From contig JAJRZD010000035.1 in the NCBI GenBank assembly GCA_024275415.1, positions 32,886 to 64,885 of the forward strand: a stretch of DNA of 32,000 bases, in the 5' to 3' direction. A program made the translations under genes and the position numbers. Origin of the DNA: an archaeon. GTDB taxonomy: Archaea > Asgardarchaeota > Thorarchaeia > Thorarchaeales > Thorarchaeaceae. The notes beneath the pieces are model-generated. The model searched no databases and was not told the origin of the DNA. It was given only the letters and a program-made list of their open reading frames with translations. Positions 1 to 5,079 of this stretch are shown one piece after another (the stretch's first letter is position 1; each line of letters opens with the position of its first letter).

Positions 1-2
1 GT

Positions 3-491
3 GATATCACGCGCATCGCTTTCACCCTGAGTCTGGAGCCTAAACACATGTTGCGGGCTGTCGATTTCTATGTCCAGTCGGATAGCATACCTCTTCCCGA
101 TGGGCTGAGGGATGTTGCCCGTCCCCTTACCGAACAAGGACTTACGATAATCGCTCTTAAAAAGGCACCTTCTGGACAATGCATCTTCCTAGACAATAAT
201 CTTTGTATGATACATCCTGCACGTCCTGGTGTCTGTAGGGCTTTTCCTTTCACATTTAATGAATTAGAGGATGATATTACTTGGGGATTTAATGCGATGA
301 TGTCAATATGTCCTGGGCTCGGACAGGGCGATGAGATGAATCCATCAGACCTTCATATCACAGCGCAGGAGGTCTTAGAGGACATTGCGATTTACCGACA
401 GTTTGTGATGGAATGGAATAACACGTTCTCCTCTCATACTGCACTATCACTTTTAGAAAGGATTCTATCGGATCCGCGGTTTTCAGTATGA
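3..491 (+). CDS. YkgJ family cysteine-cluster (Zn/Fe-chelating) protein, 5' end outside the window
   Basis: The frame is open from position 3 (DITRIAF..., matching the YkgJ 'DI.RI' segment) through the ORF-track ATG at 48. It carries the motifs CIFLDNNLCMIHPARPGVCRAFPF and CPGLG. Confidence 0.85.
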   Translation, partial: DITRIAFTLSLEPKHMLRAVDFYVQSDSIPLPDGLRDVARPLTEQGLTIIALKKAPSGQCIFLDNNLCMIHPARPGVCRAFPFTFNELEDDITWGFNAMMSICPGLGQGDEMNPSDLHITAQEVLEDIAIYRQFVMEWNNTFSSHTALSLLERILSDPRFSV

Positions 492-504
492 AAACTCGCT
501 GTCA

Positions 505-1491
505 TCACAGACGACTCAGTATTTGGAGGATGTTCCCAAAATTATGTTCGATTGCTCTTGATTTCTCTGCATATGACTTGAGATATCTTAATCTTTCATC
601 GACTTGAGCCTTTTCAAGAAAATCTTTTGATCTGATCATCTCGTGAATCTTCTCGTTAAGTTTCAAAATCTCTGTCGAGGATTCGAGTACATGCTTCAGC
701 ATCCGTATGAGGAGATGAAAGTCATTGATGTCCCTCAGCTGTAGGGTCTGGCTGTAAAATTGGAACTCAAGTCTGGCAAGCTTTTCTCTCATTTTCACCA
801 AGTCAATCAACCACTTATCCTCATCTGAAGCCTCCAACTGGTGATGCAATTTTCTCCATTTCTGTTGCTGATCGAGAAGCTGGACGAGATATTCGCGAAG
901 AAAGGAGAAATGATCCACGCCCTTGTCAACATCTTCTTCCGTGCCAATTGATGTCATCAACTCGTCCATCTGACTTAGTTTGACTGCTATCATCAATGAG
1001 AACTTGTCTACATACCTTTTGACTTCGTCTGTCTTTTCCTTCCTTGTCATGAGGTCTGCAAAGGTATCTGCCAGAGTCAGGATGAACTTGTAAAGGCATT
1101 CGCTGCATATTTCAGCACTCTCATCGCTCTTGGTAGATAGAAACTGTAATGCGTCCTCTAGATCGTTGCCTGGCACATCTTTTCCATGTATTTTCAAAGT
1201 CCAGCCTTGTGAGATACAATAGACCTTGTTGTCGGGATAATTGATGTAAATTGATGCATAGCAGACATTCTCATCCTGAGCAAGTTCCTGCGCTATGCTC
1301 TCCTTATCCTTGTGTATGGCAAAAATGGATGGATCTATCTCCATGACTTCGACTTCAAGGATGTCATCGTTGTTCACACAGAGTCTTTCATCTCCAAATA
1401 CTTTGAAACACGGACATCCCTTTACAACGCGTATCGCACTCTGTTCCAATTCACTGCCGCGTCCGAGAACATCCATTCTGTAGTACACCAT
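505..1491 (-). CDS. Hypothetical protein with 7-Cys N-terminal domain and helical/coiled-coil C-terminus (paralog 1)
   Basis: 328-aa ORF. Cys pattern CPC-x9-C...C-x14-C...CxxC is shared with the adjacent ORF. An AGAGG SD-like sequence lies upstream. Confidence 0.85.
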   Translation of the reverse strand: MVYYRMDVLGRGSELEQSAIRVVKGCPCFKVFGDERLCVNNDDILEVEVMEIDPSIFAIHKDKESIAQELAQDENVCYASIYINYPDNKVYCISQGWTLKIHGKDVPGNDLEDALQFLSTKSDESAEICSECLYKFILTLADTFADLMTRKEKTDEVKRYVDKFSLMIAVKLSQMDELMTSIGTEEDVDKGVDHFSFLREYLVQLLDQQQKWRKLHHQLEASDEDKWLIDLVKMREKLARLEFQFYSQTLQLRDINDFHLLIRMLKHVLESSTEILKLNEKIHEMIRSKDFLEKAQVDERLRYLKSYAEKSRAIEHNFGNILQILSRL

Positions 1492-1558
1492 CTTTAGAGT
1501 TTCAATATCCTCTATGATAAATCAGTACTCCATGCCCAACTCTTTGTTATAGGGCTTT

Positions 1559-2512
1559 TCATTCTGCCCTCACTTCGATTTTTGATAGGAGTGGCATCAG
1601 TTTTCGAAAGGACTTCTCCGACTTTTGCCGCTGCTGTTCTGTTTTTACCAGAACAGACTCTTCGGATTGCGTGAGAGAGCATGCATCCGTTACATAGAGT
1701 TTGAGGTCTCTCAACTCATCATGGAGTGATAGGATTTTCCGTGTTGTCCCTATCATCAATCGGAGGTGGATTAGAGAGGAACCTTCGTTCTCCCTACGAT
1801 TGAGGGCATGAACCTGATGCATGAACACAATCTCTAGCTTCTGGAGGTTCTGGTATGTATGCAGAAGGTTATGTATCTCCTCATCTTGTCGGTTCGATAA
1901 GATATTGATCTCCTCGTAACGTCTTGCTGTATTATCACGGGTCGGAAGGCTGAACTCATGGATGCCATTCACTCTTGTTGTTCTCTCCGTTTCAGCACCT
2001 TGGTTGAGATCAGACGCTATGCGATTGACAAGATTTCGTGCATAGACATCAATCACCATCTCCTTCTCCTCGTCACTGACCAAATCACCAAAGACATCCG
2101 TCAGAGTAAGTAGGTACTTGTAGAGACACGAAGAACAAACAACGTCGTCACTACCCATCCCGGACAGCACCACATAGTCCAACGCGTTCCTGATGTCCTC
2201 TGCCTTGATATCATTTTGATTCAATGTGATAGATTGTCCCTGACTAATACAGTGTGCATTGCCATCTCGAGGATCCAGATTCAGTAACCCGTAACAAAGG
2301 GTTTCTTTTGTACTCTCGAATTCCCTCAAATCCTCAACAGAAGACAACTGTGCAAAGAACTGAGGGTCTAGTGTGATGGGTTTGATGGGTGTAATCTCAT
2401 CATTGTTGATGCAGATACGTTCATCGCCGTACTCCTTCAAGCAAGGACATCCCCTTACTATCTGGATGCGATTATCATGTCTGCCTCCAATGATTGGTCC
2501 ATCCGACAGCAT
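1559..2512 (-). CDS. Hypothetical protein with 7-Cys N-terminal domain and helical/coiled-coil C-terminus (paralog 2)
   Basis: The ORF track starts at GTG 2593. ATG 2512 (MLSDG...) gives an N-terminus of similar length to paralog 1. Same Cys spacing as 505..1491. Confidence 0.85.
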   Translation of the reverse strand: MLSDGPIIGGRHDNRIQIVRGCPCLKEYGDERICINNDEITPIKPITLDPQFFAQLSSVEDLREFESTKETLCYGLLNLDPRDGNAHCISQGQSITLNQNDIKAEDIRNALDYVVLSGMGSDDVVCSSCLYKYLLTLTDVFGDLVSDEEKEMVIDVYARNLVNRIASDLNQGAETERTTRVNGIHEFSLPTRDNTARRYEEINILSNRQDEEIHNLLHTYQNLQKLEIVFMHQVHALNRRENEGSSLIHLRLMIGTTRKILSLHDELRDLKLYVTDACSLTQSEESVLVKTEQQRQKSEKSFRKLMPLLSKIEVRAE

Positions 2513-2622
2513 CCCTATGACCTTGTGTTCTTCATTGTGCCTTCTAACCCTAGATTGCGTGCTGGCACAAAGGGCAATCCGATTGAATTCCACATTAAGG
2601 TATCTTGGACGAACACTTCAGG

Positions 2623-2646
2623 GGAGCCACCTTTGAGGGTAGCTCC
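2623..2646 (-). terminator. Stem-loop directly after the RHH stop codon (terminator or processing site candidate)
   Basis: Minus strand GGAGCTACC-CTCAAA-GGTGGCTCC forms a 9-bp stem with one G-U pair. No U-tract follows. Confidence 0.35.
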
Positions 2647-2786
2647 TATCCCCAAAGCTCCCGCTTTAGCAGGTCTCGTATCGCAATCCTGATCGCTTCG
2701 GATCGGTTCGGGTACAAATTGCTTTCAACAAGCTTCTCAAGACCGTCAATATACGTTTCTGGGACATGAAGAGTCACGAGCTTCAT
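2646..2786 (-). CDS. Ribbon-helix-helix transcription factor, CdrS/aCcr1-like
   Basis: 46 aa MKLVTLHVPETYIDGLEKLVESNLYPNRSEAIRIAIRDLLKRELWG has the 'YPNRSEAIR.AIRDLL' signature. SD-like GGAGATGA precedes ATG 2786; the ORF-track start at 2855 is probably too long. Confidence 0.85.
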   Translation of the reverse strand: MKLVTLHVPETYIDGLEKLVESNLYPNRSEAIRIAIRDLLKRELWG

Positions 2787-3157
2787 CAAATCATCTCCAA
2801 CATATCTCTCTCGACTGATGAGCAATATCTCATCATCCAACGTGGTATGCACCACACGGGTATGTGCATCTTACTGCGATATGACTGTGTGTATTACTCA
2901 CTCGGCATTTGGAGTATGACGTTGTTTAGAACGAGATGGTGGTGAGAAGGAGCCAATAGCTCCTACTCTTCTGCGAATGGAACCCACGTTCGCCGGGAGA
3001 GAAGAAGTGCGCTCCAACTCCATGCAAGACACATTACCATAAGTCACCTTGTGTATGTAGCCTAATACTCTCCCATTATTCACATACAACCCGGATAACA
3101 TTCTCGTTTTGACAAAAGGTTCATATGCTTACAAATTGATTCTCTCTTAGATTTCGT

Positions 3158-3916
3158 ATGAGTGGCGAGACTCAAATGCAAGATAGCACAGATACCGAGC
3201 GTACCTTTGCGACCTGTATTTTTTGCGGGGAACTTCTTGAAAACAGGGATGTTGTCAAGTATCGCAGTTGGTATGCACATAAAGCGTGCACTACTCGAGC
3301 TATGGAGAAACAGGTGGAAGACTTTGACAAGAAGCCCTTTTACGCAGGAAGCACCAGTCTGTTCTTCGGGGTAATCACCGCCGGCTTATTCTTCCAACTA
3401 TTTCCGTTCCTCGGCAGCCTTGAAGACCCTTCTGCTCTGATAGCCATCAATGCGCTCATGGCAGTGACGTTGTTCCTACAGAGCTTTGGCTTTTTCGGGT
3501 TTACTATGAGCTTCAAAGATCCTTATGGCATTGGAAGTGGCATCATCGCTTTGTTGGCTGCGGCTTTCTTCGTGCTTGCCGGATCAAATCTGCAGGTACA
3601 CGGGTATAATCCAGCGTATTATGACCCTGAAACTGGTTTTCTTATCCTCTCCATGGTGCCGGGATATTCTTTATCCTACGCGCTTGCGATGTCACTTACT
3701 GTCCTTGTCATGTTTGCTGGGGCTGTATTGATGATGCTCTATGGGGACTACATCGGGACACAGTCCATGAATCGTATAGGCGTAGTTTTCCTCTTCGTGG
3801 GTGCGGTGATCACGGTTCTTGTACCTGGCGGTATCCTCATTGAGGCGATTTCTATTACCGCACTGTTCCTGTTAGTCGATATTCCTAAAGACTGGCAATC
3901 CATGACGGACGTCTAA
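3158..3916 (+). CDS. Multi-pass membrane protein with N-terminal C-x2-C-x17-H-x2-C zinc finger
   Basis: CIFC...HKAC at aa 20-44, followed by about 6 hydrophobic segments. Confidence 0.75.
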   Translation: MSGETQMQDSTDTERTFATCIFCGELLENRDVVKYRSWYAHKACTTRAMEKQVEDFDKKPFYAGSTSLFFGVITAGLFFQLFPFLGSLEDPSALIAINALMAVTLFLQSFGFFGFTMSFKDPYGIGSGIIALLAAAFFVLAGSNLQVHGYNPAYYDPETGFLILSMVPGYSLSYALAMSLTVLVMFAGAVLMMLYGDYIGTQSMNRIGVVFLFVGAVITVLVPGGILIEAISITALFLLVDIPKDWQSMTDV

Positions 3917-3928
3917 CATACTGATGGT

Positions 3929-3967
3929 GTTGTTTTCCCTGATTGGTGGAAACAACCTTCTTTTTCT
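3929..3967 (+). terminator. Hairpin plus T-tract, putative terminator
   Basis: GTTGTTTTCC...GGAAACAAC stem with one bulge, followed by CTTCTTTTTCT, just after the 3916 stop. Confidence 0.5.
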
Positions 3968-4067
3968 CTTGTGGTTCATATTCTCCATGTTTTTCTTCTT
4001 CCAGCAAAGAATTTATGTTAGCATCGTCATTAGTCGAGCTATTGGAAAAACATTAGAGGTTTAATAA

Positions 4068-4841
4068 ATGGCATCAGATGTTGAGTCCTCTGGTAAAGCC
4101 GAGGATACGCCAAAGGTAGCTCAGGAGCTACAGACCCTGAAATGGATCAGGGAACGGCGTTCTATCCGAGAATTTACCGGAGAGAAGATACCCGATGAGC
4201 ATATCGAAACAATACTTGAGGCTGCTCGGCATGCTCCAAGCCCTGAGAATATGCTCATGATTAGATTCATCGTTATCCGCGATGATCAGGAAACCAAGGA
4301 GTTCCTCGCAGACATCGCGCAGGAGATGGCTCAGACCGCTTTTGGAGGTGCTCCTTTCGAACTCACGAGCGGACGGAACTGGTTCATCTCTGACCCATAC
4401 CGTGCTGCTGTCTATGCACGACTACGGGATGGTGAGCTTTTCCGATATCCTGAGAAAAGCGACACGGTCATCATCGTTTGTGCAAGCGACTCTTGGCATG
4501 ATGCGGGATACATGTATCCCAATGAGCTCTTTGGCTCTGTTGTTGCCGGGATGGCTGTACAAAACATGTGGCTCACAGCAACAGAACTTGGCTATGGTTG
4601 TGGTTACGAGGCTCTCGTCTGTTCAGACCCACGACATGCCGAGCTGATACGTGACAGGCTTGGGATACCCCCAATCTGGCTTCCGCTCACAGCCTTCTGC
4701 ATTGGTCAGAGAGTTTCACCAAGGGCACTTGGGCCTAGCAGAGCACCACTGGAAGGCCTGATGTATGAGGAGCGCTGGGGCAAGCCATACACGCGATTAG
4801 CTTTCAGGGAGGATGAGTTAAGCGATGGAATTGACATTTGA
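4068..4841 (+). CDS. Nitroreductase family (FMN-binding) protein
   Basis: Motifs IRERRSIREF, ILEAARHAPSPEN and GMAVQNMWLTATELGYG. Confidence 0.9.
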   Translation: MASDVESSGKAEDTPKVAQELQTLKWIRERRSIREFTGEKIPDEHIETILEAARHAPSPENMLMIRFIVIRDDQETKEFLADIAQEMAQTAFGGAPFELTSGRNWFISDPYRAAVYARLRDGELFRYPEKSDTVIIVCASDSWHDAGYMYPNELFGSVVAGMAVQNMWLTATELGYGCGYEALVCSDPRHAELIRDRLGIPPIWLPLTAFCIGQRVSPRALGPSRAPLEGLMYEERWGKPYTRLAFREDELSDGIDI

Positions 4842-5079
4842 CGACAAGACCTTGGAGAATCTCAAAGAGATTGCCACTGAGGCTGGATTGACGGTCGAAG
4901 GGCTCATCATGTGCGTGATGGAGCAGTTCGTCAACAACAAGGGCGGACGTGTCTACACTGGTCGTTGGTCTGGAGGCGAAGAGGATGGAGTCAAGGGATT
5001 CCGATACTGTGTGCAATGGCCGTTCAGACCGGGCTTCAAAGAAGCACGAGGCGGCGAAGTTAAGAGGTGGAGTAAATAA
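4825..5079 (+). CDS. Small hypothetical protein with N-terminal RHH-like segment
   Basis: 84 aa. Strand-helix-G-helix pattern MELTFDDKTLENLKEIATEAGLTVEGLIMCVMEQF. Overlaps both neighbouring genes. Confidence 0.65.
   Translation: MELTFDDKTLENLKEIATEAGLTVEGLIMCVMEQFVNNKGGRVYTGRWSGGEEDGVKGFRYCVQWPFRPGFKEARGGEVKRWSK

Follow-up and report, generated by a model that had tools for sequence, protein, structure and literature searches.

The window analysed here is a stretch of 32,000 nucleotides, contig C11:32886-64885 of a 3.5-Mb Asgard metagenome-assembled genome, and its close protein relatives are labelled Thorarchaeota. Three of its genes, which we call the trio, follow one another head to tail on the minus strand (Table 1): a gene for a small ribbon-helix-helix (RHH) protein, then B, then A. 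B and A encode paralogous proteins with an N-terminal cysteine domain and a C-terminal helical bundle, and the cysteine domain defines a protein family that is seen only in Asgard archaea. No known prokaryotes are more closely related to eukaryotes than these archaea, and most proteins specific to their lineages await characterisation. The likely starts of the three genes were chosen by comparison with orthologs.

Tandem paralogs behind a small RHH gene

A sequence-only reading of this DNA had picked out two adjacent minus-strand open reading frames (ORFs) as paralogs, with about 30 identities over 77 ungapped residues and seven cysteines at near-identical spacing. Both ORFs are present at the positions in Table 1, and the remaining points were borne out by alignment. 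A and B are 27% identical over 312 aa (BLASTP, E 1e-36), the ungapped block holds exactly 30 identities in 77 positions (35 of 108 before the first gap), and A has exactly seven cysteines, all in its N-terminal domain, with the same seven in register in B (CPC-x9-C, 38 residues, C-x14-C, 36 or 37 residues, CxxC). Across 22 A-type and 25 B-type sequences, all seven show no or almost no variation.

In a maximum-likelihood tree of 72 domains, A and B form one clade each (support 94/91), and both clades are nested in a clade of domain-plus-bundle proteins (support 98/97). Since A and B separate in this way within the family tree, the duplication predates the radiation of the family, and the two genes are true, ancient tandem paralogs. 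A is the more constrained copy and evolves several-fold slower than B: mean column identity is 70% for A against 44% for B, the terminal branches of the tree measure 0.05-0.2 against 0.2-1.2, and orthologs of A are 65-79% identical.

When the co-occurrence of the pair was surveyed, as the sequence-only reading had proposed, the order RHH, B, A proved to be conserved in the window's own genome family. The trio is complete in 22 of the 28 own-family loci fetched and RHH is followed by A alone in two more, while truncation of the remaining four loci accounts for the lack of an RHH gene in them. In two genera RHH and A alone are retained, and the genes flanking the trio differ between genomes. On the heterodimer or polymer suggested by the sequence-only reading, a complex prediction for A and B, with each supplied as an alignment, scored 0.00, which counts neither for nor against binding. 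That A and B work together is a tentative proposal, to which we would give somewhat less than even odds.

Table 1. Positions in the window of the trio, its domains and the associated sequence elements.
Feature	Position	Strand	Description
Gene A	505..1491	-	328-aa ORF; likely start ATG 1476, 323 aa; six/seven-Cys N-domain and C-terminal helical bundle; slowly evolving paralog
Gene B	1559..2593	-	344-aa ORF; likely start ATG 2512, 317 aa; architecture as in A; fast-evolving paralog
Cys domain of A	1051..1443	-	residues ~17-147; C26, C28, C38, C77, C92, C129, C132
Cys domain of B	2084..2476	-	residues ~40-170; C49, C51, C61, C100, C115, C153, C156
RHH gene	2646..2855	-	likely start ATG 2786, 46 aa; first gene of the cluster, a CdrS/aCcr1-like paralog
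AGTAATAC box, core GTAWTAC palindrome	2891..2898	-	~10 nt upstream of the CATAT element in the RHH promoter
Leader hairpin between box and RHH start	2813..2837	-	single-sequence folds, 8 loci
Imperfect hairpin (GGAGCTACC...GGTGGCTCC)	2622-2645	-	directly after the RHH stop codon

The cysteine domain and its family

A profile of the family matches A and B at E 1e-46 to 1e-49, and both proteins carry all of its invariant columns. In an alignment of 30 diverse members, six cysteines (26, 38, 77, 92, 129 and 132 in the numbering of A) are invariant together with P27, N40 and Y134, and the resulting pattern, C-P-x(10-11)-C-x-N ... C ... x14-15 ... C ... C-x-x-C-[LIM]-Y, is fitted by both A and B. 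The cysteine conservation expected among homologs by the sequence-only reading holds for these six, which are universal, but not for the second cysteine of CPC, which is replaced by L, F or S in distant members; the Thorarchaeota have this seventh cysteine. A profile search of 1.84 billion representatives returned 62 clusters only, and all named members are Asgard, being Thor-, Heimdall-, Hod-, Prometheo- or Lokiarchaeota. The genome families referred to here are anonymous handles, and the taxon names rest on a few named cluster members. The domain is present in 129 of 301 Asgard species genomes. By family, it was found in 71 of 76 genomes of the family to which the window belongs and in 24/28, 5/5, 5/5, 6/6, 11/11 and 2/2 of six others, and it was not found in Asgard families sampled 68, 19 and 11 times.

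That the domain is undescribed, as the sequence-only reading had supposed, was upheld. A and B have no match in Pfam (none at E<=1), NCBIfam, PADLOC or the sequences of the PDB, and literature searches found no paper describing the domain. Modelled with AlphaFold2 and the 30-sequence alignment, the N-domain alone gives a confident alpha/beta structure of ~130 aa, with a predicted local distance difference test (pLDDT) score of 89.8 and a predicted template modelling score (pTM) of 0.82. Foldseek found no neighbour of this model in the PDB (best E 0.2), and exhaustive VIA alignment against 48,161 PDB representatives reached at best Z 2.8, whereas Z 7-8 is usual even for models that lack a clear match. 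Template modelling (TM) scores in the ESM Atlas were at most 0.38, and a feature search of a protein atlas gave a best score of 0.84, below the useful range. Since no fold neighbour emerged from the Foldseek, VIA or ESM Atlas searches, we regard the predicted fold as previously undescribed, with the caveat that the model is a metal-free prediction. The novelty is limited to the domain family and its fold; cysteine-rich metal modules as such are well known.

The model places the first C..C pair on a beta-hairpin, the C-x14-C pair on a second hairpin and the CxxC at the N-terminus of a helix, so disposed that the three predicted pairs have the usual look of structural metal sites. Because six cysteines are invariant across all Asgard members, metal binding is plausible, and we consider it likely for this domain. 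The cysteines would then ligate a structural metal, most likely one or two zinc ions and less likely an iron-sulphur (Fe-S) cluster. Structural zinc modules such as the zinc ribbon and the treble-clef carry cysteine pairs on beta-hairpins and a CxxC at a helix N-terminus. The domain of A and B resembles them in the pairing of its cysteines at hairpins and a helix start, and one ortholog carries a weak automatic TFIIB label, but its putative ligands are spread over ~110 residues of a 130-aa alpha/beta domain. We rejected a zinc ribbon or TFIIB-type domain on three counts: there is no Pfam zinc-ribbon match for A or B, the cysteines extend over 107 residues, and there is a single CxxC where such a domain has two CxxC knuckles within ~40 aa. 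The domain is strongly acidic (pI ~4.3, net charge -11 to -13), and neither A nor B contains a hydrophobic segment. From these two properties we infer that it may serve as a soluble protein-binding module or in metal handling, rather than as a nucleic-acid or membrane binder.

The C-terminal halves had been described as helical or coiled-coil; they are helical, but AlphaFold2 predicts a compact five-helix bundle (pLDDT ~90) in place of a coiled coil. In full-length A (pLDDT 80) a beta-rich N-terminal part is followed from about residue 150 by these five long helices. Searches with the full-length model returned generic helical-bundle rows only. The structural matches of the bundle are at background, with Z 10.3 to a chemoreceptor sensor, 9.9 to ScdA and 8.7 to YtfE, since a Z of about 10 lies below the meaningful level for helical bundles. 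Against a PhoU-like protein, Foldseek gave E 0.06 with TM 0.21-0.29, and there is no Pfam PhoU match. The bundle shares a four- to five-helix topology with the RIC proteins (ScdA and YtfE) and with PhoU-like proteins, but lacks both a common conserved set of His/Glu metal ligands and a Pfam match; the residues invariant between A and B are E152, E242, Q248 and E315, with no histidine. An identity as a di-iron hemerythrin-like RIC protein was rejected on the same grounds (no Pfam match, no histidine invariant in A and B, Z values at background). A CdvA-like protein, which would combine a beta domain with helices, was also set aside, there being no PRC or other Pfam match and nothing of the kind among the fold-search rows.

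Most members of the family lack the bundle. The domain occurs alone in proteins of 120-155 aa, and a profile of the C-terminal bundle found no split partners beside such stand-alone genes. It is joined to a helical bundle in Thorarchaeota A and B and in a 307-aa form of a Heimdall-group family, where it also follows a 230-aa N-terminus of no assigned family. In two further families it is followed by a weakly matching thioredoxin/KaiB-like tail (E ~1e-3) that lacks CxxC (L054 4767-5408, L073 1339-2019). Lastly, it follows an Arf-family G domain (Pfam Arf, E 1e-39 to 1e-44) in fusions that occur as two paralogs per genome in family f27, one cluster of which is named Heimdallarchaeota. A single Heimdall-group genome, G238, has four members (L047 5255-6265, L055 4001-4993, L052 4136-5263 and L048 5450-6373), namely two Arf fusions, one form in which the domain is joined to helices and one protein with the 230-aa N-terminus.

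In the five genomes of family f5, which belong to three genera, the stand-alone domain gene always comes directly after a gene for a giant protein of 1260-1484 aa, which combines a TrmB winged helix with a long apolipoprotein-like rod and ends in a C-terminal domain. The conserved run in these genomes (L053 934-5726; L069-L072) comprises a ~485-aa apolipoprotein-like helical protein, present in four of the five loci, the giant and the domain gene. A 1300-aa homolog of the giant lies ~5 kb from gene A in the Thorarchaeota genome (L003 4429-8331). A cation diffusion facilitator (CDF)-type efflux gene (Cation_efflux and ZT_dimer) lies ~4 kb downstream of a family member in two unrelated contigs (the P0167 context and L008 10084-11046), which may be chance.

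The RHH regulator and its promoter box

The first protein of the trio is a small single-domain RHH protein (Pfam RHH_1, E 3.7e-8, above the cut-off) with 46-aa orthologs at the same place in other genomes. Its best NCBIfam match is CdrS (E 4e-13, 49.1 bits, below the 100-bit cut-off), and aCcr1 also matches (E 5e-4, 19.8 bits, below the 60-bit cut-off); both models are lineage-specific equivalogs, for Halobacteria and Sulfolobales. In Halobacteria and other Euryarchaeota, cdrS stands with ftsZ2 in the classical cdrS-ftsZ arrangement (PMC7439475), and in the Sulfolobales aCcr1 is associated with the aCcr1-box, of consensus AGTAATAC (PMC9976878). The Thorarchaeota operon resembles these systems in that a tiny RHH gene heads it and a box identical to the aCcr1-box consensus lies in that gene's own promoter, and a canonical RHH-ftsZ pair elsewhere in the genome carries this box too. 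It differs in what stands behind the RHH gene, which is neither of the division genes ftsZ2 and cdvA but B and A, two proteins of an uncharacterised family. The score for CdrS (49 against 100 bits) also sets the protein apart from CdrS itself, and its DNA binding and cell-cycle role are putative. Judged from sequence, the regulator is of a known kind, CdrS/aCcr1-like, and the cargo genes are not.

The Thorarchaeota genome has four CdrS/aCcr1-like RHH paralogs, including that of the trio. One, on contig C23 (9647-10436), is directly upstream of ftsZ; the others lie on C20 (L066 6005-6307, minus strand) and C127 (L067 3113-3301, plus strand). Of these last two, one stands before the gene of a 232-aa acidic protein without a family assignment, and the other before genes for a 170-aa membrane protein and an ABC ATPase, with a gene for a Rab-like GTPase adjacent.

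In the trio the box is ~105 nt upstream of the RHH start. Its GTAWTAC core is found at the equivalent place in 10 of 10 orthologous leaders, 9-12 nt before a CATAT element, and the promoter of the cdrS-ftsZ pair on C23 has the same arrangement of box and CATAT (GTATTAC-N-CATAT). The composite GTAWTAC-N6-16-CATAT occurs eight times in the 3.5-Mb genome, and two of these occurrences are the promoters of the trio's RHH gene and of the ftsZ-linked paralog. Neither B nor A is preceded by a further copy of the core; within 15 kb of the start of the window, the promoter copy is the only one. We read the GTAWTAC box as a shared putative operator of RHH-B-A and cdrS-ftsZ, which would place the two operons under related control.

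The RHH leader can form a hairpin, flanked on one side by a GGTGAWTACC-like motif and on the other by the GAGAGA...GGTGA ribosome-binding region, whose place is conserved and whose stem sequence differs between genomes (z -1.4 to -3.7 at eight loci: the window, L011, L013, L018, L020, L032, L033 and L037); two genera (L004, L017) are without it. A conserved place with a varying stem suggests an RNA-level element and not a protein operator. These hairpins do not align for a consensus fold and were therefore folded as single sequences. An inverted-repeat search of positions 2480-3160 at tool thresholds returned nothing. The imperfect hairpin directly behind the RHH stop codon may attenuate the transcription that runs on into B, or separate it.

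Possible roles of A and B and their surroundings

Our best overall explanation, to which we assign a probability of about 0.45, is that A and B belong to an Asgard-only six-cysteine family and act as a metal-stabilised adaptor or scaffold under a CdrS-type circuit. The pair would probably be expressed under the same small-RHH circuit as ftsZ, and the conserved A would form the core of the adaptor or scaffold with the fast-evolving B as its diverged partner. Such an adaptor could be used in cell division or cell organisation, although we find this particular role rather doubtful. In Heimdall-group genomes the same module is wired directly to an Arf-type GTP switch. An extended version, in which the six-cysteine domain would be an Asgard invention that provides an output or docking module for circuits of cell organisation controlled by small GTPases and CdrS, with A and B forming a division- or cytoskeleton-associated complex co-regulated with FtsZ via the shared RHH operator, seems to us improbable. 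If it is true, A and B would be a previously unknown complex of this kind, and the Heimdall-group module would be the first case in a prokaryote of a native effector domain attached physically to an Arf-type switch.

Several observations weigh against our best overall explanation. There is no RHH gene beside members outside the window's own family, so that the link to CdrS is lineage-specific. Other RHH genes of the same genome stand at the head of an ABC-transporter operon and before an acidic-protein gene, which means that this type of RHH is not by itself a marker of cell division. The composite of box and CATAT is not enriched genome-wide (8 against 8-17 in shuffled sequences), and only its placement is telling. 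The distances between the genes, 133 and 82 bp, and the hairpin behind the RHH stop are compatible with separate transcripts. Finally, the heterogeneous fusion partners (Arf, thioredoxin-like and unassigned) fit a generic module better than a single pathway.

The same proteins might instead form a redox or metal sensor, in which an Fe-S cluster or a redox-sensitive zinc site and the bundle report on the state of metal or redox, possibly co-regulating the RHH protein in the manner of a split NikR-type arrangement. Invariant cysteines in the proteins of an anaerobe and the adjacency of an RHH gene are consistent with such a sensor, as are CDF cation-efflux genes within 4 kb in two unrelated contexts. 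The RHH adjacency is confined to one family, however. The bundle matches to the iron-centre repair proteins ScdA (Z 9.9) and YtfE (Z 8.7) and to a PhoU-like protein (Foldseek E 0.06) also point this way, but they are weak: Z values near 10 are not meaningful for helical bundles, the bundle has only the four shared Glu and Gln residues and no histidine conserved between A and B, and it is missing from most family members. Similarly, the two subfamilies with a thioredoxin/KaiB-like C-terminus lack CxxC in that part. We consider a sensor unlikely.

A role as effector or regulator of small GTPases, with the cysteine domain docking Arf-like or Ras-like GTPases and A and B acting in trans without a specific link to division, appears equally unlikely. 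Described appendages of multidomain Asgard small GTPases are longin and roadblock domains (PMC10933270), and some ArfR proteins with extra flanking domains have been mentioned but not described (bioRxiv 10.1101/2024.02.28.582541). The cysteine domain is not among the described appendages, but in one Heimdall-group family it is the C-terminal appendage of an Arf G domain, and these covalent fusions (two paralogs per genome, with a third protein that has an unassigned N-terminus) point to docking. They are nevertheless restricted to one clade with long branches, and A and B have no G domain. The Thorarchaeota genome offers 34 small-GTPase matches as candidate partners; the best Arf score among them is 78 bits against ~150 for the fusions, so that a true ArfR may be missing from it, and the conserved trio itself contains no GTPase gene.

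A reading of the trio as a toxin-antitoxin or defence cassette, in which the RHH protein is an antitoxin-like repressor and A and B are effectors, would account for a small RHH gene leading the operon, as is typical of type II modules, and for a weak ParD match (E 0.047), but it is nearly excluded by the distribution of a core gene (the trio is found once per genome in 71 of 76 family genomes, at a fixed syntenic place and with the high identity of A given above) and by the lack of PADLOC matches, and the RHH protein groups with CdrS/aCcr1.

The interest lies in a confidently modelled domain without a known fold that is a core gene in Thorarchaeota, probably tied to the small-regulator circuit of ftsZ in one lineage and fused to Arf-type GTPases in another. 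The two soluble proteins of ~320 aa and the 130-aa domain are a concrete and cheap target for studying Asgard cell biology by structural and biochemical means.

In the surroundings of the trio, tRNA and Rfam scans of positions 1-5000 and 1-4200 of the window gave nothing credible. The downstream neighbour is a convergent gene for a CxxCxxCC-family protein. Upstream, a gene on the plus strand (3158-3916), divergent from the RHH promoter, encodes a 252-aa multi-pass membrane protein whose N-terminus has a weak TFIIB-type zinc-ribbon match (E 0.003, below the cut-off). This gene is not kept at the equivalent place in other genomes, and beyond it lie unrelated beta-oxidation genes.

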